A stretch of DNA of 42,712 nucleotides from Escherichia phage LotteLoewe_Bas71: sequence record PQ850615.1. One strand, written 5' to 3'. A program made the position numbers and the translations under genes. Below are positions 1,823 through 42,532 of the stretch, piece by piece. The notes under the pieces were generated by a model. The model was not told the DNA's origin. It was given only the letters and a program-made list of their open reading frames with translations, and did not search any database. Every line of letters starts with the position of its first letter. Positions within the stretch are counted from its first letter, which is position 1.

Positions 1823-3304
1823 ATGTTAACTATGAACGGTCAGAATCAGGGTGTTAAGACAAAACACCGGGAATGGCTGCATCACTTCGATAAATGGCAG
1901 AAGGTACGCCACGCTCTTGAAGGCGACCTTATCCGCTATCTGCGCAACGTCGGGAAGAACGAGCCTGACCAGACCTACGCAGCACAGCGACAGGAAGAAT
2001 ACGAGAACGGCGCTATCTGCTACAATTTCACCAAACGCACGCTGGCGGGGATGACGGGGTCAGTGATGCGCAAAGACCCTGAGCAGATTATCCCGCCTGA
2101 ACTTGAGTACCTGTTGCACAACGCTGACGGTTCAGGTGTCGGGCTGTGGCAGCACGCGCAGGATACGCTGATGGAGATTAACTCGATAGGCCGTGGCGGG
2201 TTGCTGGTGGACGCCCCGGAAACAGCCGCAGCAACGGCGGCAGAGCAGAACGCGGGATTATTAAACCCGGTAATCGCATTCTATACCGCGGAGAACATTA
2301 TCAACTGGAGACTCACCCGCATCGGTTCAGTGAACCGCGTGACGATGGTTGTATTGCGTGAGGCATGGGAATACTCGGAACCAGGCGCTGAGTTTGAAAC
2401 AAAATTCGGCGAGCAATACCGCGTCCTTGACCTGATTGACGGTCGCTACCGCCAGCGCATCTACCGCTTCGATGCCGAAGGTGGCGCACAGGATGAAGTA
2501 ATCGAAATCTTCCCGGAACTCGGCGAACAGTTGCGCGGTAAAATCCCGTTCACGTTCATTGGCGCAAGCAACAACGACGCCACTATAGACGATGCGCCTT
2601 TACTGCCGTTAGCTGAGCTAAATATAGGACACTTCAGAAATTCGGCCGATGTGGAAGAGGCCAGCTTTATAGTAGGTCAACCGACACTGTTCATTGCCCC
2701 CGGCGAGAACATGAGCATGGAGCAGTGGAAAGAAGCCAACCCACACGGCATACGCATGGGGTCGCGTTCAGGCCACAACATCGGCTCCGGCGGAAATGCG
2801 TTTCTGGTTCAGGCGGCGGAAACTAACCTCGCCAAACAGAATATGCTGGATAAAGAGAATCAGGCCATCCAGATTGGCGCGCAGCTTATCACCCCGACGC
2901 AGCAAATCACCGCGGAATCGGCCCGCCTGCAACGCGGCGCCGACACGTCAGTCATGGCAACAATAGCACGTAATGTAAGCATGGCGTATACCGATGCGTT
3001 GCGCTGGGTTGCGGGTATGCTTGGGCTTAGTGAAGATACTGAGATTGAGTTCAAGCTGAATATGGAATTCTTCCTGCAACCTATGACAGCTCAGGACCGC
3101 GCTCAGTGGATGGCGGATATTAACGCTGGCCTGCTACCCGCCACCGCTTACTATGCTGCGTTGCGCAAGGCAGGTGTGACTGACTGGACAGATGAGGACA
3201 TTCAGAACGCTATTGAAGACGCACCTCTGCCGTTGGGTTCTGTTGCTCAGGTAGCGGGAGAGATTCCGCAGTCGGCGCAGCAACAGGACACCACTCAGCA
3301 GTAA
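1823..3304 (+). CDS. portal protein
   Basis: 493 aa ORF directly after terminase large subunit with GAGGA SD; size and position typical of portal; acidic C-terminus. Confidence 0.65.
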   Translation: MLTMNGQNQGVKTKHREWLHHFDKWQKVRHALEGDLIRYLRNVGKNEPDQTYAAQRQEEYENGAICYNFTKRTLAGMTGSVMRKDPEQIIPPELEYLLHNADGSGVGLWQHAQDTLMEINSIGRGGLLVDAPETAAATAAEQNAGLLNPVIAFYTAENIINWRLTRIGSVNRVTMVVLREAWEYSEPGAEFETKFGEQYRVLDLIDGRYRQRIYRFDAEGGAQDEVIEIFPELGEQLRGKIPFTFIGASNNDATIDDAPLLPLAELNIGHFRNSADVEEASFIVGQPTLFIAPGENMSMEQWKEANPHGIRMGSRSGHNIGSGGNAFLVQAAETNLAKQNMLDKENQAIQIGAQLITPTQQITAESARLQRGADTSVMATIARNVSMAYTDALRWVAGMLGLSEDTEIEFKLNMEFFLQPMTAQDRAQWMADINAGLLPATAYYAALRKAGVTDWTDEDIQNAIEDAPLPLGSVAQVAGEIPQSAQQQDTTQQ

Positions 3305-4881: not shown

Positions 4882-4909
4882 AAGGCCCCATTATGGGGCC
4901 TTAGTTTTC
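4882..4909. terminator. bidirectional intrinsic terminator
   Basis: AAGGCCCC-ATTAT-GGGGCCTT hairpin flanked by A-run upstream and T-run downstream; between convergent genes. Confidence 0.6.
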
Positions 4910-5111
4910 AACGGAATCTTGTGTTTAAATCCTGCTCATGGACAACCCTCAGAACAGTGTCATAATCCCCGTATCTTCCAGGTTCAAATATATCTAATGC
5001 CTTGTAAGCAGACATTGCGTCAGGGAAAACCTGCAGAACCTTTTTAACCCGGCACAAGTCACCGTCGAACTCTTCATCGAACTCTTGAACTACTTCGCAA
5101 ATTGCATACAT
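4908..5111 (-). CDS. hypothetical acidic 67-aa protein (opposite-strand accessory gene)
   Basis: Strong SD (AGGAGGTGA), own promoter at 5139..5167 and terminator at 4882..4909; antiparallel to flanking head genes. Confidence 0.55.
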   Translation of the reverse strand: MYAICEVVQEFDEEFDGDLCRVKKVLQVFPDAMSAYKALDIFEPGRYGDYDTVLRVVHEQDLNTRFR

Positions 5112-5138
5112 TTTTCACCTCCTGTTTAAGTTAACTGA

Positions 5139-5167
5139 ATAGTACCCTATTATATTGGGGTGTGCAA
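5139..5167 (-). promoter_or_regulatory. leftward class A promoter for accessory gene 4908..5111
   Basis: On the minus strand TTGCAC (5162..5167) - N17 - TACTAT (5139..5144); same palindromic core. Confidence 0.55.
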
Positions 5168-5208
5168 ACTATTTATTTACGTATTCCAGTTATTCCTCCG
5201 AATTGTAA

Positions 5209-5220
5209 ATGTTGGAATAA
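5209..5220 (+). promoter_or_regulatory. candidate late-promoter motif ATGTTGGAATAA (extended -10-like) upstream of spanins
   Basis: 12-mer identical to 5992..6003; contains TGgAATAA. Confidence 0.3.
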
Positions 5221-5221
5221 A

Positions 5222-5233
5222 CTATTCGAATAG
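5222..5233. repeat. perfect 12-bp palindrome CTATTCGAATAG
   Basis: Everted arrangement of the GAATAG/CTATTC half-sites found in the early promoter cores; adjacent to TTGACT (5234..5239). Confidence 0.5.
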
Positions 5234-5442
5234 TTGACTTTTCACTAAAAATATGATAAGCTCCACCTGAGCTTGTGAAGTATGAACAAGCGACCGCGGC
5301 GCGGGCAGGTAACGGAGCGGGACGTAAGTCCTGAGTGTAGTTACGCTGACGCGTTCGGAAGGGCCATACTCTATTGCTTGTGTAAAAAGTAACAGGTTTA
5401 CTGAGATTACGCCGTTTCTATGTTTAAATGATAAGGACTAGC

Positions 5443-5469
5443 GCCCTGCTTTAAGGCAGGGCTTTACTT
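5443..5469 (+). terminator. terminator/attenuator-like hairpin just upstream of the spanin RBS
   Basis: GCCCTGC-TTTAAG-GCAGGGC followed by TTTACTT; 17 nt before spanin ATG. Confidence 0.4.
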
Positions 5470-5486
5470 ATCGAGAAAGGAGAAAC

Positions 5487-5873
5487 ATGAATCTTAAAGC
5501 AACTGTCGTAGCAGGAGCATGTTTCATCATCCTGGTTTACGCACACGGCATCTACCAGTATCGCAGCGGATGGAACGAAGGCCGGGCTAATCTCGTTTCG
5601 CAGCAACAGCAGAAAGCACAGGCTGAGTTAGCGAAGAAAACACAACGGCAGCAGCAGGATGAATCGAAGGCCGCCGCCGCTGACAACGAAGGCAAGACGA
5701 AATCAGAGGTGATTACCCGTGAAGTCGTTAAGTACATTAAAACGCCTGGTCGCAGCGTGTGCACTTTTGACCCTGAGCGCGTGCAGCTCAAGTCCCGCGC
5801 CGTCGCCAACGCCAATTCCATCCCCGGATACGACGATGATGCAGCCGCCGTGCAAACTGGCGCAGCCAAGTAG
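5487..5873 (+). CDS. i-spanin (Rz-like)
   Basis: N-terminal TM helix (ATVVAGACFIILVYAHGIY), Q/A/K-rich predicted coiled coil; embeds a +1-frame lipoprotein ORF (classic Rz/Rz1 architecture). Confidence 0.65.
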   Translation: MNLKATVVAGACFIILVYAHGIYQYRSGWNEGRANLVSQQQQKAQAELAKKTQRQQQDESKAAAADNEGKTKSEVITREVVKYIKTPGRSVCTFDPERVQLKSRAVANANSIPGYDDDAAAVQTGAAK

Positions 5874-5982
5874 CGACGCTGATGAGGATTTGGCCGTCGA
5901 CGTTCAGAATGCTGAATGCGTACGGCAACTGAGGCTGAAAGTGTTTATGTTGCAGGATTACGTGAGGAATATTCTGGAATAG
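5719..5982 (+). CDS. o-spanin (Rz1-like outer-membrane lipoprotein)
   Basis: +1 frame overlapping the i-spanin; signal peptide with lipobox LTLSAC, proline-rich mature region. Confidence 0.65.
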   Translation: MKSLSTLKRLVAACALLTLSACSSSPAPSPTPIPSPDTTMMQPPCKLAQPSSDADEDLAVDVQNAECVRQLRLKVFMLQDYVRNILE

Positions 5983-5991
5983 TTGCCTTGC

Positions 5992-6003
5992 ATGTTGGAA
6001 TAA
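5992..6003 (+). promoter_or_regulatory. candidate late-promoter motif ATGTTGGAATAA upstream of scaffold/capsid genes
   Basis: Exact repeat of 5209..5220, about 60 nt upstream of scaffold ATG. Confidence 0.3.
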
Positions 6004-6064
6004 TTTATTCTTGACATGTAAATCCGGGTGGCCCGGATTCCAACGTCCAGGGGACATACTGACT

Positions 6065-6766
6065 ATGAATCGTTTTTTACGTTATCCGTTCCAGGAAGAA
6101 GCTGGAGCAGAAGATAAAGCTGGTGGCGGTGACGCTCCTAAAATGTTCACCGCTGAAGAAGTTCAGGCGCTGATTGAGAAAGAAGTTGCCGGGCTTAAGG
6201 CTAATCAGGAAGCATTGTTGGCGGAGAAGAAAGAAGCCGCTCGCAAAGCAAAAGAGGCCGAAGAAGAACGGCAGCGCGCGCACCAGGAGGCGTTAAAAGC
6301 CGCTGGTAAGATGGATGAGTTCGAAAAGACGATTCGTAGCCAGTACGACCCTGTGTTAGCCGAGAAAGACGGTCGCATCTCCAGAATGGCAGAGCGTATC
6401 CTCGGCAGCGAACGTAAAGCGGTGCTAGGCTCTTTCGCGGGTGACTTTATTACCCCAGAAGCAGTGGACATTCTTGCGCCGTTCGTTAAGACTGAGTTCG
6501 AAGGCGATGATGTGGTTACTAAGTTTGTTGGTGCAGACGGTAACGTAATCACGACTGACCCGGAACAGTTCCGCAAATACCTGCGCGAACACAAGGCGTT
6601 TTCGCATTTGATCAAAGCAAATGCAGCTTCCGGCGGCGGGGCTTCCGGTAGCAAAGGCGGCGGGGCCGCACCAGCGTTTAAAGACATGAGTGAAGCAGAG
6701 CGTTTAGCCCTGTATAAATCGAACCCTGCCGAATTTGAACGGCAACTTAAAGCCCTGAGGAAATAA
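6065..6766 (+). CDS. capsid scaffolding protein
   Basis: E/K/A-rich predicted coiled-coil protein immediately upstream of the major capsid gene; start refined to internal ATG 6065 with AGGGGA SD. Confidence 0.55.
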   Translation: MNRFLRYPFQEEAGAEDKAGGGDAPKMFTAEEVQALIEKEVAGLKANQEALLAEKKEAARKAKEAEEERQRAHQEALKAAGKMDEFEKTIRSQYDPVLAEKDGRISRMAERILGSERKAVLGSFAGDFITPEAVDILAPFVKTEFEGDDVVTKFVGADGNVITTDPEQFRKYLREHKAFSHLIKANAASGGGASGSKGGGAAPAFKDMSEAERLALYKSNPAEFERQLKALRK

Positions 6767-10785: not shown

Positions 10786-11954
10786 ATATGGCTACAACTC
10801 CTTTTAAGGGCGCGAATACCGCGCAATTCTATGTGGCGGAAACTACCCCTGGCGTAACACCGACTAACCCGGTATGGTCGCCGTTGCGTAACACGGGCGG
10901 CGTTCCCGCTGTAACCCGCGATGCACTGACTTCCAACGAACTGGACGGCAGCCGTGAAACTACATCCATCCGAACCGGTAACAAGCAGGTTAGCGGGGAG
11001 TATGCCATCGAACTTAGCTCTCGTAGCCAGGATGATTTCCTTGCGGGAGCGATGACTTCTACGTGGCAAGCTGGGGTAGAGATTACTGGCGCCGAAATTA
11101 CGGTCGCCCCAGCAGGTAAAACATTCACCCGCGCTGCCGGTAGCTTCATTACTGACGGTGTAGAAGTTGGCGACCTTATTGCGTTCACCGACTTAACCGG
11201 CGACAACGCAAAACCGTTTATCGTGACCGCGGTTTCCGCTCTGGTAGTTACGGGCGCAGGTATTCAGCACACGCTGACAGCAGAGACAGTAACCACTGAC
11301 GCAAAAACTGGCGACAAGCTGGAAACCGGTAACGCGTGTAAGACGTTCTCCATCCTGACGTGGTTCAAGGGCCAGTGTGGTAACCCGGACGCGTACATGC
11401 TGACCAAAGGTGTGGAAATCTCTGGCTTTACCGTAGAGCAGGCGGTTAACGCCATGGTCACCGGCAGCTTCCCGTTCATCGGCCTGAGTCAGGAGATTCT
11501 TACCGCGCCGCCGTCCGGCTCTGATTTCTCTCAGGTTACGTTCACCGATGAGCCGTTCTCGTCGGTAGATGTGTCGGTGTTCGATGGCTCCACGCCGTTG
11601 CGTTGCGATACTCTCACCATCACCAACGACAACGGAGCTTCCGCGCAGTTCGAACTCGGTAACAGTAGCGTGGCGTTCGTCGAACGTGGACGCGCAGCTA
11701 ACACATTCTCTATCTCTGGCAAGCTGTACGACATGGCGATGATTCAGAAGTTTATCAACGAGCAGCAGGTAGAGATTAACTCTATTCTGGCAGGGGTAAA
11801 CGGGGCTATGTCTTTCAGTTTGAAACGTGCAGAGCTTACGGCGGTTACACCTGAGATTGGTGGGCCTGAGTCAATCACTCAGTCCATTGAAGGCCAGGCT
11901 ACCGGCAATCAGTACCAGTCGTCTATCGTAATTCAACGTATCACCTACGCATAA
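10782..11954 (+). CDS. major tail protein
   Basis: 390 aa, T/G/S-rich; last structural ORF before the chaperone/tape-measure block; followed by a strong terminator. Confidence 0.5.
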   Translation: MNMATTPFKGANTAQFYVAETTPGVTPTNPVWSPLRNTGGVPAVTRDALTSNELDGSRETTSIRTGNKQVSGEYAIELSSRSQDDFLAGAMTSTWQAGVEITGAEITVAPAGKTFTRAAGSFITDGVEVGDLIAFTDLTGDNAKPFIVTAVSALVVTGAGIQHTLTAETVTTDAKTGDKLETGNACKTFSILTWFKGQCGNPDAYMLTKGVEISGFTVEQAVNAMVTGSFPFIGLSQEILTAPPSGSDFSQVTFTDEPFSSVDVSVFDGSTPLRCDTLTITNDNGASAQFELGNSSVAFVERGRAANTFSISGKLYDMAMIQKFINEQQVEINSILAGVNGAMSFSLKRAELTAVTPEIGGPESITQSIEGQATGNQYQSSIVIQRITYA

Positions 11955-11958
11955 AACT

Positions 11959-11984
11959 AAGGCCCCTTTCGGGGCCTTTTTCTC
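11959..11984. terminator. bidirectional intrinsic terminator
   Basis: AAGGCCCC-TTTC-GGGGCCTT hairpin followed by TTTTCT; between major tail gene and leftward cassette. Confidence 0.6.
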
Positions 11985-12213
11985 ACTCATCAATATTACT
12001 TCGATACTCCCGTAACTTCTCCAGACTTTCAATTGCTTCTGCTAAGTCGGTTCCGGTGTCCTTGTGTCCACGTAAACCCATGCACAATAGCTTCTTCAAT
12101 GCGTGCTGTAACGCCGGGTCGCGGATGTCGAAAGCGCGGAGCACATCATAAACGTCTACTGTCATAGTGCTGCCGTGAGTATTTGTCATTGTGCGGTTGT
12201 ATTTTGAAGTCAT
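11983..12213 (-). CDS. hypothetical 76-aa protein (last gene of leftward cassette)
   Basis: ATGA-coupled to the upstream metallophosphoesterase gene; followed by terminator 11959..11984. Confidence 0.45.
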   Translation of the reverse strand: MTSKYNRTMTNTHGSTMTVDVYDVLRAFDIRDPALQHALKKLLCMGLRGHKDTGTDLAEAIESLEKLREYRSNIDE

Positions 12214-13749: not shown

Positions 13750-13778
13750 GTTACATGTGAATAGTACCCTATTATATT
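13750..13778 (+). promoter_or_regulatory. candidate rightward promoter overlapping the leftward one (divergent pair)
   Basis: GTTACA (13750..13755) - N17 - TATATT (13773..13778) on the plus strand within the same palindromic element; upstream of tail chaperone operon. Confidence 0.35.
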
Positions 13779-13789
13779 GGGGTGTGCAA
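13761..13789 (-). promoter_or_regulatory. leftward class A promoter for cassette 13732..11983
   Basis: Minus strand TTGCAC (13784..13789) - N17 - TACTAT (13761..13766). Confidence 0.55.
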
Positions 13790-13795
13790 GTAGTG

Positions 13796-13806
13796 TGCTA
13801 GAATAA
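13796..13806 (+). promoter_or_regulatory. candidate late-promoter motif variant TGCTAGAATAA upstream of tail chaperone operon
   Basis: 9/11 match to TGTTGGAATAA; about 90 nt upstream of 13897. Confidence 0.2.
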
Positions 13807-13896
13807 GTTTGCGCCTAGTGTCGCACACGAAAAGCGGGTGGTTCCCGCCTGGCGCATTAACCATAACCAGTAACCTCTTAACCAAAGGACTAAAGA

Positions 13897-14313
13897 ATGA
13901 AACTTTCTGATTTCTATTTTGCCGACCGCCACGCCGCCGGTACTAAAATGCCTATCCTTCTGCCCAGTGGTAAAGATTCCGGTGAATGGTTGCAGGTCAT
14001 CGGCCCCGATTGTGACGCTGGTGTTCGTGCGGGCCGTGCCTACACAACGGCAATTCGACGCCTTACGGAAGAACTTGCGCCATTAGATAAAGAGTGCGAG
14101 GCGCTGAATAACTGGGCGCGCTATAATGATGAGAAGGGCTGGCGGGTGATGGACCTGAACAAGCAGCTTGCCGTGGAAATCGTCACCGGTTGGTCATTCG
14201 ACGAACCATTCAGCAAAGAGGCGCTTGCTAACCTGTTCGACCAGTACAGTGGGTTGGCAGAGGCCGTAGTTAAGCATCACACCGATAGCCGTGAGAAACT
14301 CTCGGAAAAGTAA
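13897..14313 (+). CDS. tail assembly chaperone (G-like)
   Basis: Located immediately upstream of the tape measure gene; followed by a -1 frame ORF reachable by frameshift. Confidence 0.55.
   Translation: MKLSDFYFADRHAAGTKMPILLPSGKDSGEWLQVIGPDCDAGVRAGRAYTTAIRRLTEELAPLDKECEALNNWARYNDEKGWRVMDLNKQLAVEIVTGWSFDEPFSKEALANLFDQYSGLAEAVVKHHTDSREKLSEK
14305..14313 (+). other. candidate programmed -1 ribosomal frameshift site (GAAAAGTAA)
   Basis: Lys codon AAG immediately before stop TAA, with AAA available in the -1 frame; -1 frame is open into the tape measure start. Confidence 0.45.
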
Positions 14314-23763: not shown

Positions 23764-23767
23764 AACT

Positions 23768-23792
23768 AAGGCCCCGTTTGGGGCCTTTTCTC
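23768..23792. terminator. bidirectional intrinsic terminator between tail and replication arms
   Basis: AAGGCCCC-GTTT-GGGGCCTT hairpin followed by TTCTC; flanked by convergent operons. Confidence 0.6.
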
Positions 23793-30255: not shown

Positions 30256-30284
30256 ACTATAATAGCTAACTATTCATGTGTCAA
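30256..30284 (-). promoter_or_regulatory. leftward class B promoter (TTGACA-N17-TATAGT) for SSB-like gene
   Basis: Minus strand TTGACA (30279..30284) - N17 - TATAGT (30256..30261); core AATAGCTAACTATTCA. Confidence 0.55.
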
Positions 30285-35300: not shown

Positions 35301-35589
35301 ACCGTTTAGCCAACCCTTCCAGCAAATTTTTATACTCTTCAAAATATTCCTCGACCAAATCATCGCCGAAATAGAAGTCGATATACTCGAGATTATCTCT
35401 TACGTTAAGCGATGCCGACATGGTGCTTAGTTGGCGTAAGCTAATTAGCTTCATTTCTGTTTCTACGCAGAAAGGCCGGTAGGTATCAAGATGGCAAGAG
35501 ATATTGAAGCATAAAGCGAACTCTCCGGCCACGGAGTGAACCATATACACTTCGTTTTCTGCTTTATTGTGGAAAATTACGCCTTTCAT
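35299..35589 (-). CDS. hypothetical 96-aa protein
   Basis: ORF ATGA-coupled to the upstream AlpA-like gene. Confidence 0.4.
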   Translation of the reverse strand: MKGVIFHNKAENEVYMVHSVAGEFALCFNISCHLDTYRPFCVETEMKLISLRQLSTMSASLNVRDNLEYIDFYFGDDLVEEYFEEYKNLLEGLAKR

Positions 35590-35768
35590 TTCACGTTCTC
35601 CTTAATCCATGCTTCGACTTTATTACGGTCAAATGTTCCCGGTAAACGGCGGCCCATAACCTTAATACAGCAGTCAGGGAATTTGCCGCTGCGCAACCAG
35701 TTATTAATGGTCTGACGTGTCACCCCGATACGCTCGGCTACCTCATTCTGTGTCATGTAATGTTGCAT
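35586..35768 (-). CDS. AlpA/Xis-like HTH DNA-binding protein
   Basis: Start refined to ATG 35768 (AGGGGA SD); HTH region MTQNEVAERIGVTRQTINNWLRSGKFP typical of the AlpA family; first gene of the leftward arm. Confidence 0.6.
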   Translation of the reverse strand: MQHYMTQNEVAERIGVTRQTINNWLRSGKFPDCCIKVMGRRLPGTFDRNKVEAWIKENVK

Positions 35769-35799
35769 TTTTATATCCCCTGTTTGTTTAGTGAAACCG

Positions 35800-35828
35800 A
35801 GTATAGGATAGCGGGAATGTAAAAGCAA
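35800..35828 (-). promoter_or_regulatory. leftward promoter of replication arm (TTGCTT-N17-TATACT)
   Basis: Minus strand -35 TTGCTT (35823..35828), 17-nt spacer, -10 TATACT (35800..35805); about 30 nt upstream of AlpA-like ATG. Confidence 0.5.
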
Positions 35829-35865
35829 CCAATCCCTGCAATATTTAATCTTTACAAAAAAGTTA

Positions 35866-35895
35866 TTGAAAGTTCTTGACACATGTTTGTATAAT
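35866..35895 (+). promoter_or_regulatory. rightward promoter in central control region (TTGAAA-N18-TATAAT)
   Basis: -35 TTGAAA 35866..35871, 18-nt spacer, consensus -10 TATAAT 35890..35895; divergent from promoter 35800..35828. Confidence 0.5.
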
Positions 35896-36094
35896 GGTTT
35901 TGGGACTTGTATATATTACGGAGTTGACGAACCCTCCCCGAGGGATTCGTCAACCCCTCCCAGACAGCTGAGATGCTTGCCTTGTGGTTTAAGGATAAGT
36001 GTATCTAAATCTCATTTAAAGAAGTAACCCGCTGAAATATCTACTGTTTCTTAATGTGCCGTAGATTCGCAACCGTAAAAATGTAACGATTATT

Positions 36095-36187: not shown

Positions 36188-36216
36188 TTGCACACCCCAA
36201 CATAATAGGATACTAT
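36188..36216 (+). promoter_or_regulatory. early promoter, class A (TTGCAC-N17-TACTAT) with palindromic core
   Basis: -35 TTGCAC 36188..36193, 17-nt spacer, -10 TACTAT 36211..36216; core CATAATAGGATACTATTCA. Confidence 0.55.
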
Positions 36217-36241
36217 TCACTTATCGAAACGAGACAGAGGA

Positions 36242-37380: not shown

Positions 37381-37409
37381 TTGCACACTAATATAGAATA
37401 GGCTACTAT
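37381..37409 (+). promoter_or_regulatory. early promoter, class A (TTGCAC-N17-TACTAT)
   Basis: Same architecture and core (TAGAATAGGCTACTATTCA) as 36188; follows terminator 37266..37296. Confidence 0.55.
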
Positions 37410-42128: not shown

Positions 42129-42299
42129 ATGTTCAGCGACATCAACGCAGCAATCGAAGAAGCAATCTGGCGCCGTTACAACGGCGAGCAACAGCGTCAC
42201 TTCTGCCTGGTGCAACGTGGTAACATGGTCGCCGTGGTGCAGGACCGCGATAACAAATATCCGAATGCGATGTGGACAACGAGGAATTTCTTAGGATGA
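42129..42299 (+). CDS. hypothetical protein (56 aa)
   Basis: Short ORF; preceded by a possible 27-aa hydrophobic peptide ORF at 42046..42129. Confidence 0.3.
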   Translation: MFSDINAAIEEAIWRRYNGEQQRHFCLVQRGNMVAVVQDRDNKYPNAMWTTRNFLG

Positions 42300-42532
42300 T
42301 TACCAGCATTCCTAACCTGATTAAAGAATATGGCACGATGGCCGAGACATGCCGACAAACCGGCATCAACGAAATGACTATTGCTAAGTACAGCAAAGAT
42401 GTTAACTGCGATCGCCACGTAATTTTTAACAACCGTCTGATGACGCACGTTAAGACAAGCCCGGTGTTATTCACGCGCCGGGGTATCACTAAAACAGAGC
42501 AACGCATTGCTAAAGAGGAGAGTGGGGAATGA
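42296..42532 (+). CDS. hypothetical protein (78 aa)
   Basis: ATGA-coupled ORF (start refined to ATG 42296). Confidence 0.35.
   Translation: MITSIPNLIKEYGTMAETCRQTGINEMTIAKYSKDVNCDRHVIFNNRLMTHVKTSPVLFTRRGITKTEQRIAKEESGE

Follow-up and report, generated by a model that had tools for sequence, protein, structure and literature searches.

Two arrays of GGAATA half-sites at predicted late promoters of Escherichia phage LotteLoewe_Bas71: putative operators and a NinH-like candidate regulator

Escherichia phage LotteLoewe_Bas71 carries a 12-mer (ATGTTGGAATAA) ahead of two of its late transcription units, and this repeat is considered here together with the promoters beside it and the phage protein that may bind it. 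The sequence (PQ850615.1), 42,712 nucleotides (nt) analysed at full length and called the window throughout, is the genome of a Kagunavirus (Guernseyvirinae). Across 4900-6400 the identity is 99.5% with Escherichia phage vB-Eco-KMB35 and 99.4% with Bas74, and 363 phage records, chiefly Kagunavirus and Jerseyvirus, match this region. Following the gene order annotated in Bas74, the terminase, portal and head genes run rightward up to about 4878 and are succeeded by a small leftward open reading frame (ORF), the Rz/Rz1 spanin genes (5487-5982), the scaffold (6065) and capsid genes, two leftward genes and a tail operon starting at 13897. The replication genes are leftward, a block of small rightward genes stops just ahead of the terminase, and the holin and endolysin genes are located away from the spanin unit. 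Conservation was assessed in 49 unique sequences around the first copy (site 1), gathered with a motif-independent anchor consisting of the spanin leader and a loose -10 frame, in 58 IMG/VR loci around the second copy (site 2), reached through the scaffold protein at identities from 100% down to 56%, and in 50 loci at the head of the tail operon (site 3), reached through the tail assembly chaperone. Five complete genomes were also compared: Jersey, SP-031, phiEap-2, VLCpiS11a and AH01.

A preliminary description of this DNA proposed that the 12-mer is a late-promoter motif resembling an extended -10 element. The repeat is confirmed: its exact copies lie at 5209-5220 and 5992-6003, both on the plus strand and with no third copy in the window, and they precede the leader-spanin and scaffold-capsid units, respectively. 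The motif is real, conserved, specific to these two late units and functional-looking. As a mere repeat, the 12-mer is weak evidence. There are 165 repeated 12-mers in the window, and the 2.65 kb of intergenic DNA would be expected to contain 0.16 shared 12-mer pairs (the probability of at least one being 0.12). With up to two mismatches allowed, the 12-mer has 5 matches against 3.19 expected, a number reached in 23 of 100 shuffled sequences. The four 12-mers that are shared between intergenic regions all lie in regulatory-looking elements, two in the early promoter family, one in a terminator and the fourth being ATGTTGGAATAA itself. The genome-wide search gives little weight to the full 12-mer; it does single out a core, GAATA-N3-TATTC, which occurs exactly twice in the window (at 5215 and 5998) and, with up to one mismatch, six times against 0.88 expected, a count that none of 100 shuffles attains. 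The four one-mismatch palindromes, at 3058, 8268, 9849 and 39950, were rejected as operators, being unconserved and explained by ribosome-binding sites or coding sequence. At least four GAATA/TATTC pentamers within 80 bp are found only at sites 1 and 2, with five in each; the maximum in 200 shuffles was four (seven shuffles) and none reached five. Comparison with related phages bears out GGAATA-N3-TATTC and not the ATGTT part of the 12-mer, which is not conserved outside Kagunavirus; within the first copy only GGAATA(A) is kept across genera.

The two sites are arrays of half-sites, assigned to neither strand. At site 1 the order is TATTCC (5182), TATTCC (5191), a 17-bp gap, GGAATA (5214), TATTC (5223) and GAATA (5228). 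These compose a 15-bp palindrome, O1 (5214-5228, GGAATA-AAC-TATTCg), and an auxiliary site, O1' (5182-5196, TATTCC-AGT-TATTCC), which lies 17 bp upstream of O1 with the centres about 31 bp apart and is conserved in four of four motif-bearing clades. Site 2 consists of GGAATA at 5966 and 5976, a 15-bp gap, GGAATA at 5997 and TATTC at 6006, giving the palindrome O2 (5997-6011, GGAATA-ATT-TATTCt) and the auxiliary site O2' (5966-5981, GGAATA-TTCT-GGAATA). In phiEap-2 the position of O2' is occupied by a full palindrome, TGAATAAATTATTCC, at about -47. Both arrays therefore follow one layout, a palindrome with a second site some 30-33 bp (three helical turns) upstream, and they flank the leader-spanin unit on both sides. 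Kagunavirus, Jerseyvirus, Cornellvirus and phiEap-2 all keep them, with varying spacers. In the whole genomes of the window, Jersey and SP-031 the clusters are restricted to these two loci; phiEap-2 shows the two arrays in the same geometry, with one further small cluster nearby at 11501-11533, and no GGAATA cluster is present in the genomes of VLCpiS11a and AH01. Computation thus finds dyad symmetry, recurrence at promoters, conservation above that of the flanks and a fixed promoter offset, from which we infer that the arrays are putative operators of a dimeric DNA-binding protein. The 12-mer would then form the left-hand half of a palindromic operator 15 bp long, with the consensus GGAATA-AWT-TATTCC.

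Full or near-full palindromes are also seen outside the main arrays, at 26069 in L112 (Salmonella phage FSL SP-031) and at 11501 in L279 (phiEap-2); the sequences of the extra palindromes are TGAATAAATTATTCC, at the Rz/Rz1 junction, and AGAATAACTTATTCC, and some lineages may have a third operator. VLCpiS11a (L110), which has no GGAATA array, carries TTGCGAG/CTCGCAA half-sites upstream of its spanin gene, with 14 copies against about 5 expected. This array includes the palindrome ACTCGCAAAATTTTGCGAGT, and a second cluster lies in an early intergenic region (L110 coordinates 35820-35908 and 5128-5281). The lineage is without the NinH-like gene described below, and its array resembles an operator set that has been swapped in. 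To judge from such arrays, the position upstream of the spanins is a regulatory hotspot where different lineages have different operators.

Downstream of the site 1 palindrome every clade has a -35 hexamer (TTGACT, TAGACT or TGGACT), a variable 17-bp spacer ending in TGn and a -10 hexamer of the form TAnnCT. In the window this predicted promoter, P1 (5234-5262, plus strand), comprises TTGACT at 5234-5239, a 17-bp spacer, TG at 5254-5255 and TAAGCT at 5257-5262, with a predicted start near 5269 that puts the centre of O1 at about -48.5; relatives have, for example, TAGACT..TGtTACGCT and TGGACT..TGaTAACCT. Information content is 1.4-1.7 bits per column in the half-sites and 1.5-1.6 in the -35, TG and -10 elements, compared with 0.9-1.1 in the spacers. 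The distance from the start of the palindrome to the -35 is 20 bp in Kagunavirus, Jerseyvirus, Cornellvirus, the L051 type and phiEap-2, and 21 bp in L014, the sole variant with a 4-nt spacer. At site 1 the 12-mer lies upstream of P1 and the TTGAC that follows it is a genuine -35. A TTGAC had been noted after each copy, and it does occur 13 nt (5234) and 8 nt (6012) beyond them; its reading as a -35 holds at site 1 and fails at site 2, where it is placed at the predicted start and is replaced by TTGTTA in Jerseyvirus. TGTAAAT, likewise noted near both copies and present at 5204-5210 and 6017-6023, was rejected as part of the motif: at site 2 it is not kept, and at site 1 only Kagunavirus and Jerseyvirus keep it.

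At site 2 the predicted promoter surrounds the motif. P2 (5983-6011, plus strand) has TTGCCT at 5983-5988, a 17-bp spacer and TATTCT at 6006-6011, with a predicted start near 6018; O2 covers part of the spacer and the -10, its centre at about -14, and the centre of O2' is at about -44.5. The overlap of the palindrome with the P2 -10 is exact in all clades. The frame TTGCCT-17-TATTCT is kept across clades, and relatives that lack GGAATA have TTGCAT-17-TATTCT, TTGTTA-17-TATATT or TTGCAT-17-TATATT. The frame survives in motif-less relatives, and the motif is therefore an add-on and not part of the promoter. In both P1 and P2 the -10 T, A and final T are kept and the 17-bp spacer drifts, with TG kept at P1. 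A third promoter, P3 (13777-13804, plus strand), is predicted ahead of the tail operon, with a weak -35 (TTGGGG), a 16-bp spacer, TG at 13796-13797 and TAGAAT at 13799-13804. Its extended -10, TGn-TAGAAT, is conserved, with the variants TGaTAGAAT, TGgTAGAAT, TGcTATTCT, TGtTAATAT and TGcTAAACT, and P3 stands back-to-back with a leftward early promoter. The sequence TGCTAGAATAA at 13796-13806 had been offered as a variant of the 12-mer; it is found at that position, but it belongs to this extended -10 promoter, has no palindrome and is not the same motif. All three are predicted sigma70-type promoters with the conservation pattern across clades that such promoters should have. A simple sigma70 consensus scan (9-of-12 score) lists none of P1, P2 and P3, so the promoter calls rest on comparative footprinting; the -10 hexamers of P1 and P2 are sub-consensus.

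The reading of the 12-mer as a non-canonical or extended -10, recognised by RNA polymerase with a phage-encoded sigma-like or specificity factor, has to be weighed against these frames. Under this reading transcripts would start about 7 nt past TGGAATAA, close to 5227 and 6010. The site 2 sequence TGG-AATAAT is formally a good extended -10, one Jerseyvirus variant (GTGTAATAAT) loses GGAATA yet keeps the extended -10, and the failure of P1 and P2 in the consensus scan also speaks for it. In the same register, however, site 1 reads TGG-AATAAA and lacks the final T(-7), and the alternative register TGt-TGGAAT has G where the essential A(-11) belongs. Nor is the TG conserved: Jerseyvirus site 1 (TTCAGGAATAC) lacks it, as does one site 2 of the Cornellvirus type (L044, CTGCGGAATAAT). 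A -10 element has no need of a palindrome or of extra half-sites in both orientations, and a conserved sigma70-type frame lies downstream of the motif at site 1 and around it at site 2, persisting where the motif is missing. No sigma-like domain was detected among the 20 small ORFs scanned. The extended -10 or sigma-like mechanism is thus not supported, and we regard it as highly improbable.

A second alternative would take the arrays out of transcription altogether, as recombination sequences at module boundaries or as sites for packaging or replication proteins. They bracket a leader-spanin cassette that is mosaic: three Jerseyvirus-type contigs (L032, L040 and L041) have a Kagunavirus-type spanin leader at 94-95% identity, and therefore recombination has occurred at the operator/promoter junction. 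Most Jerseyvirus loci can be aligned with the window only over 5182-5240, and the NinH-like gene introduced below adjoins terS. Against such roles stand the half-sites conserved between variable spacers, with no uniform block, the fixed offset to the -35 and the exact overlap with the P2 -10 in all clades, and the arrays lie 5-6 kb from terS, whereas pac sites are usually in or beside that gene. Such a non-transcriptional role is very unlikely.

The arrays are best regarded as putative operators, and a protein that may bind them was sought among the products of the phage. Pfam scans of the 20 small ORFs gave two DNA-binding candidates, an HTH_17/Xis-like protein (35586-35882) and a NinH-like protein with a Fis-like helix-turn-helix (HTH) (42272-42532, plus strand), the latter encoded by the last gene before terS. 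In a tblastn comparison of 72 window ORFs, only the NinH-like gene had a counterpart in Jersey and SP-031 and none in VLCpiS11a or AH01. The HTH_17/Xis-like protein was rejected as the regulator, being missing from the motif-bearing SP-031, as was a divergent 67-residue ORF next to site 1 (4908-5111), which has no domain and is absent from Jersey, SP-031, VLCpiS11a and AH01. Among IMG/VR contigs longer than 40 kb, the NinH-like gene accompanies the arrays in 41 of 41 cases and is found in none of the four contigs that lack them; the first table had read 39/2/0/4, and both apparent exceptions were found to encode the protein. Two outcomes were predicted beforehand. Contig 053801, without a NinH-like gene upstream of terS, also has no arrays, and phiEap-2, which has a VLC-type capsid module and keeps the NinH-like gene, has both arrays. 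The phiEap-2 genome was taken from GenBank; searches with the capsid protein and the VLC scaffold retrieved neither of two NinH-positive test contigs. A Webervirus-like contig (L166) has a distant NinH-like gene, which was set aside as a test on account of its different recognition helix.

The product of 42272-42532 can be placed in the NinH family (PF06322) on sequence similarity. Close homologues carry the PF06322 domain, one of them named 'Protein ninH', and in BLASTP the window protein and lambda NinH are 33% identical across 51 residues, a stretch that takes in the HTH (E = 3e-9). The predicted structure has three helices at 13-39 followed by two strands. Lambda NinH, a Fis-like nucleoid-associated protein, forms homodimers, bends DNA and has a preference for 15-bp palindromes of the form G-N13-C (Chakraborti et al. 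2020, PMC7166090). The sequence GGAATAAATTATTCC in Cornellvirus and phiEap-2 has this 15-bp G-N13-C format. The inner positions of the palindrome do not seem to follow the Fis consensus, and a search of PDB sequences with a three-sequence NinH profile returned no Fis chain. The idea that late transcription needs a phage-encoded factor was reasonable with respect to a DNA-binding protein, although not to a sigma-like one; it is indirectly supported, and a single specific candidate, predicted from sequence, can be named.

The arrays could instead be operators for an enterobacterial host transcription factor or nucleoid protein, with the co-distribution of the NinH-like gene a by-product of shared ancestry. 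All of the operator evidence fits this reading just as well. The motif-bearing phages infect Escherichia, Salmonella and Enterobacter, and the half-sites loosely resemble enterobacterial sites such as the ARG box (TGAAT-N4-ATTCA). The spacing here is GAAT-N5-ATTC, unlike the ARG box; ArgR, MetR, RcsB, sigmaE and sigma54 were all set aside on spacing, and no E. coli factor known to recognise GGAATA-N3-TATTCC was identified. Hosts provide a further comparison: phiEap-2, which infects Enterobacter (Klebsiella) aerogenes, has the arrays and VLCpiS11a, which infects K. pneumoniae, does not, and these two hosts would be expected to share most of their regulators. The phyletic match with the NinH-like gene, including the two advance predictions, would have to be coincidence. 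A host factor is rather unlikely.

We lean, with modest confidence, towards two operator arrays at sigma70-type promoters that are bound by a dimeric phage protein, most probably the NinH/Fis-like product of the gene that immediately precedes terS. Binding would be cooperative across the paired sites (O1 with O1', O2 with O2'), which would lie at about -80 and -48.5 relative to the P1 start and at about -45 to -47 and -14 relative to the P2 start. From the position at -45 to -49 the bound protein would help RNA polymerase at both promoters, and at P2 the site over the -10 would also limit initiation, acting as a brake. This model of help plus brake is suggested by the sub-consensus -10 hexamers, which fail the simple consensus scan, and by the positions of the sites. 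The predicted target preference of the NinH-like protein is GGAATAWWTTATTCC.

Several points weigh against this proposal. It is plausible, if awkward, that one protein would activate from about -48 and also cover the -10 of the promoter that follows, so that any sign given to the regulation is a guess. P3 has no GGAATA palindrome, and the motif is therefore not a general late-promoter signal. O2' overlaps the last Rz1 codons, so that coding constraint confounds its conservation, and the outer 15-mer positions in the window are G..G (O1) and G..T (O2), not G..C. The co-distribution with the NinH-like gene is uncorrected for phylogeny and may reflect only two or three independent gains or losses, and in some motif-less contigs the gene was judged absent solely by a pattern-seeded search. 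Against PF06322 the window protein reaches 24.2 bits (E = 3.3e-5), under the 29.8-bit cut-off. Its structure model is mediocre, with a predicted local distance difference test (pLDDT) value of 60.6, and the Foldseek matches to it are all weak (E > 0.5), the top ones being HTH domains including those of TyrR and NtrC4. Its recognition helix, NEMTIAKY, differs from that of lambda NinH, SRGTVRKY, at three aligned positions, and for this reason the specificity of lambda NinH is not transferable. The one RNA sequencing study of a Kagunavirus that was found (PMC12645636), coarse and giving no 5' ends, puts NinH in a broad 'middle' class together with the capsid gene.

P1 would produce an untranslated spanin leader of about 220 nt (5269-5486, plus strand), which ends at the start of the i-spanin gene (5487) and contains, besides a conserved CGGAAGGGCC box, a 5' hairpin whose sequence differs by clade and a 3' hairpin (5443-5462). 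Compensatory changes occur in the closing stem (UA/CG) and in the 3' hairpin (CG/GC/UA); claims about this RNA are limited to stems with clear compensatory changes, the cross-clade alignment and the alifold global structure being unreliable. A U-tract after the 3' hairpin, giving it a terminator-like appearance, exists in the Kagunavirus type only and is absent from the Jerseyvirus, Cornellvirus and phiEap-2 types. AH01 retains the 3' half of the leader behind another promoter. The small ORFs annotated within the leader in Bas74 (Bas74_0007) and Jersey (gp08) are not homologous, and the ATG of the Bas74 ORF is missing in Jerseyvirus and L014; both coding sequences appear spurious. The leader may serve as an attenuator or a stability element, or may be a stable small RNA. 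The tail operon begins with a Y-shaped leader (13811-13855, plus strand) that has a closing stem GCGCC/GGCGC and the hairpins GTGT-cgc-ACAC and GCGGG-UGGUU-CCCGC; beyond it an AACC-rich tract extends as far as the ribosome-binding site. The Y-shaped leader shows four covarying pairs and an invariant UGGUU loop and is conserved even in distant relatives. Neither leader is matched by Rfam 15 when the whole window is searched at gathering thresholds, and a search of 5100-6100 at E <= 10 found nothing relevant to the spanin leader. Both leader RNAs have good covariation support and correspond to no RNA family described so far. The predicted P2 transcript opens with a 5' stem-loop (6023-6039, plus strand, ATCCGGG-tgg-CCCGGAT) whose stem base covaries (AU / CA-UG / G-C / GA-UC). 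A small hairpin at 6046-6056, GTCC-AGG-GGAC, displays the Shine-Dalgarno sequence of the scaffold gene and covaries to GACC-AGG-GGTC in VLC-type phages.

The late motif is, as previously suggested, distinct from the early promoter family. A 32-bp member of this family, TTGCAC-17-TACTAT, lies on the minus strand at 5136-5167, with an identical copy at 13758-13789 (minus strand) and a copy with two mismatches at 36188-36219 (plus strand). The core has about seven copies; further ones lie at 37397 (plus strand) and, oppositely oriented, at 30261, 32561 and 32605. The sequence is the published PHIRE "phage promoter" consensus (PMC9825357). The core is palindromic over its -10, (T/G)AATA-N6-TATTC; its half-sites resemble those of the late operator, with N6 and not N3 between them, and the element may be both promoter and shut-off operator. 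The same terminator-arm sequence, AACTAAGGCCCC, occurs at 11955-11966 and 23764-23775, at the ends of two rightward structural operons that face leftward genes, and these sites are probably bidirectional terminators. The sequence TTGACACATGTTTGTATAAT at 35877-35896 recurs as TTGACACATATTTGTATAAT upstream of the spanin leader of AH01 (a Pantoea phage, L111), at about 12165-12185; it has perfect -35 and -10 hexamers just 8 bp apart and hence no standard promoter layout.

The Guernseyvirinae are a large group of Escherichia and Salmonella phages that are much used in therapy and biocontrol. The literature found makes no mention of GGAATA arrays or of the leaders and contains nothing on gene regulation in this group, the only published promoter motif being the early family. 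The outcome of the analysis, consisting of coordinates for three predicted late promoters, a defined sequence for the operator and one named candidate regulator, amounts to a first testable regulatory map for the Guernseyvirinae and to an operator-regulator arrangement of a familiar kind. We know of no biological role assigned to NinH-family proteins since the lambda nin region was described. If the link to NinH is true, it would provide the first physiological function and a high-affinity target for a widespread family known only as a Fis mimic. A wider possibility, put forward tentatively, is that NinH-family proteins in the Guernseyvirinae are sequence-specific regulators of late transcription. 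The gene, the arrays and P1 would form a portable module that times or doses spanin and capsid production, sister lineages would have other operators in the same place (for example TTGCGAG in VLCpiS11a), and the P1 and P3 leaders would represent new classes of cis-regulatory RNA in the same circuit.

Elements of this arrangement are familiar from other phages. The spanin unit resembles the lambda pR'-6S RNA-tR' region, where a promoter is followed by an untranslated leader of about 200 nt that ends in a hairpin and by lysis genes (here the spanins). It differs in that the spanin leader is a covarying multi-helix RNA with a U-tract in the Kagunavirus type only; no Q-like Pfam match was found in the 20 small ORFs scanned, which are part of the ORF set, and lambda-type Q antitermination was not recognised. 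In the lambda CI/Cro operators (OR, OL) and with phi29 p4, the position of the site decides between activation and repression and one protein can do both. The arrays described here share with these systems palindromic sites spaced for cooperative binding; they differ from them in belonging to a virulent phage without a lysogeny module and in placing 15-bp sites with 6-bp arms at late promoters and not at an early switch. At weak sigma70 late promoters, small dimeric activators of phages Mu (Mor and C) and P2/P4 (Ogr and Delta) bind a dyad site that overlaps the -35 or lies just upstream of it (about -43 to -55), as may happen at P1, where a dyad site lies just upstream of the -35 of a weak sigma70-type late promoter. 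Those activators, with which no sequence relationship is expected, are not known to have an additional site over the -10, and in the window the motif is found at only two of the late promoters, of which there are at least three. A comparison can also be made with lambda NinH itself, likewise a small phage protein with the same HTH region; the predicted topology of three helices and two strands matches its description (PMC7166090), and its 15-bp G-N13-C preference is the format of GGAATAAATTATTCC in Cornellvirus and phiEap-2. The lambda gene lies in the nin region before Q and the window gene before terS. In contrast to the degenerate motif of lambda NinH, which has no assigned target promoters, the candidate sites in these phages are sharply defined, form two arrays per genome and are situated at promoters.

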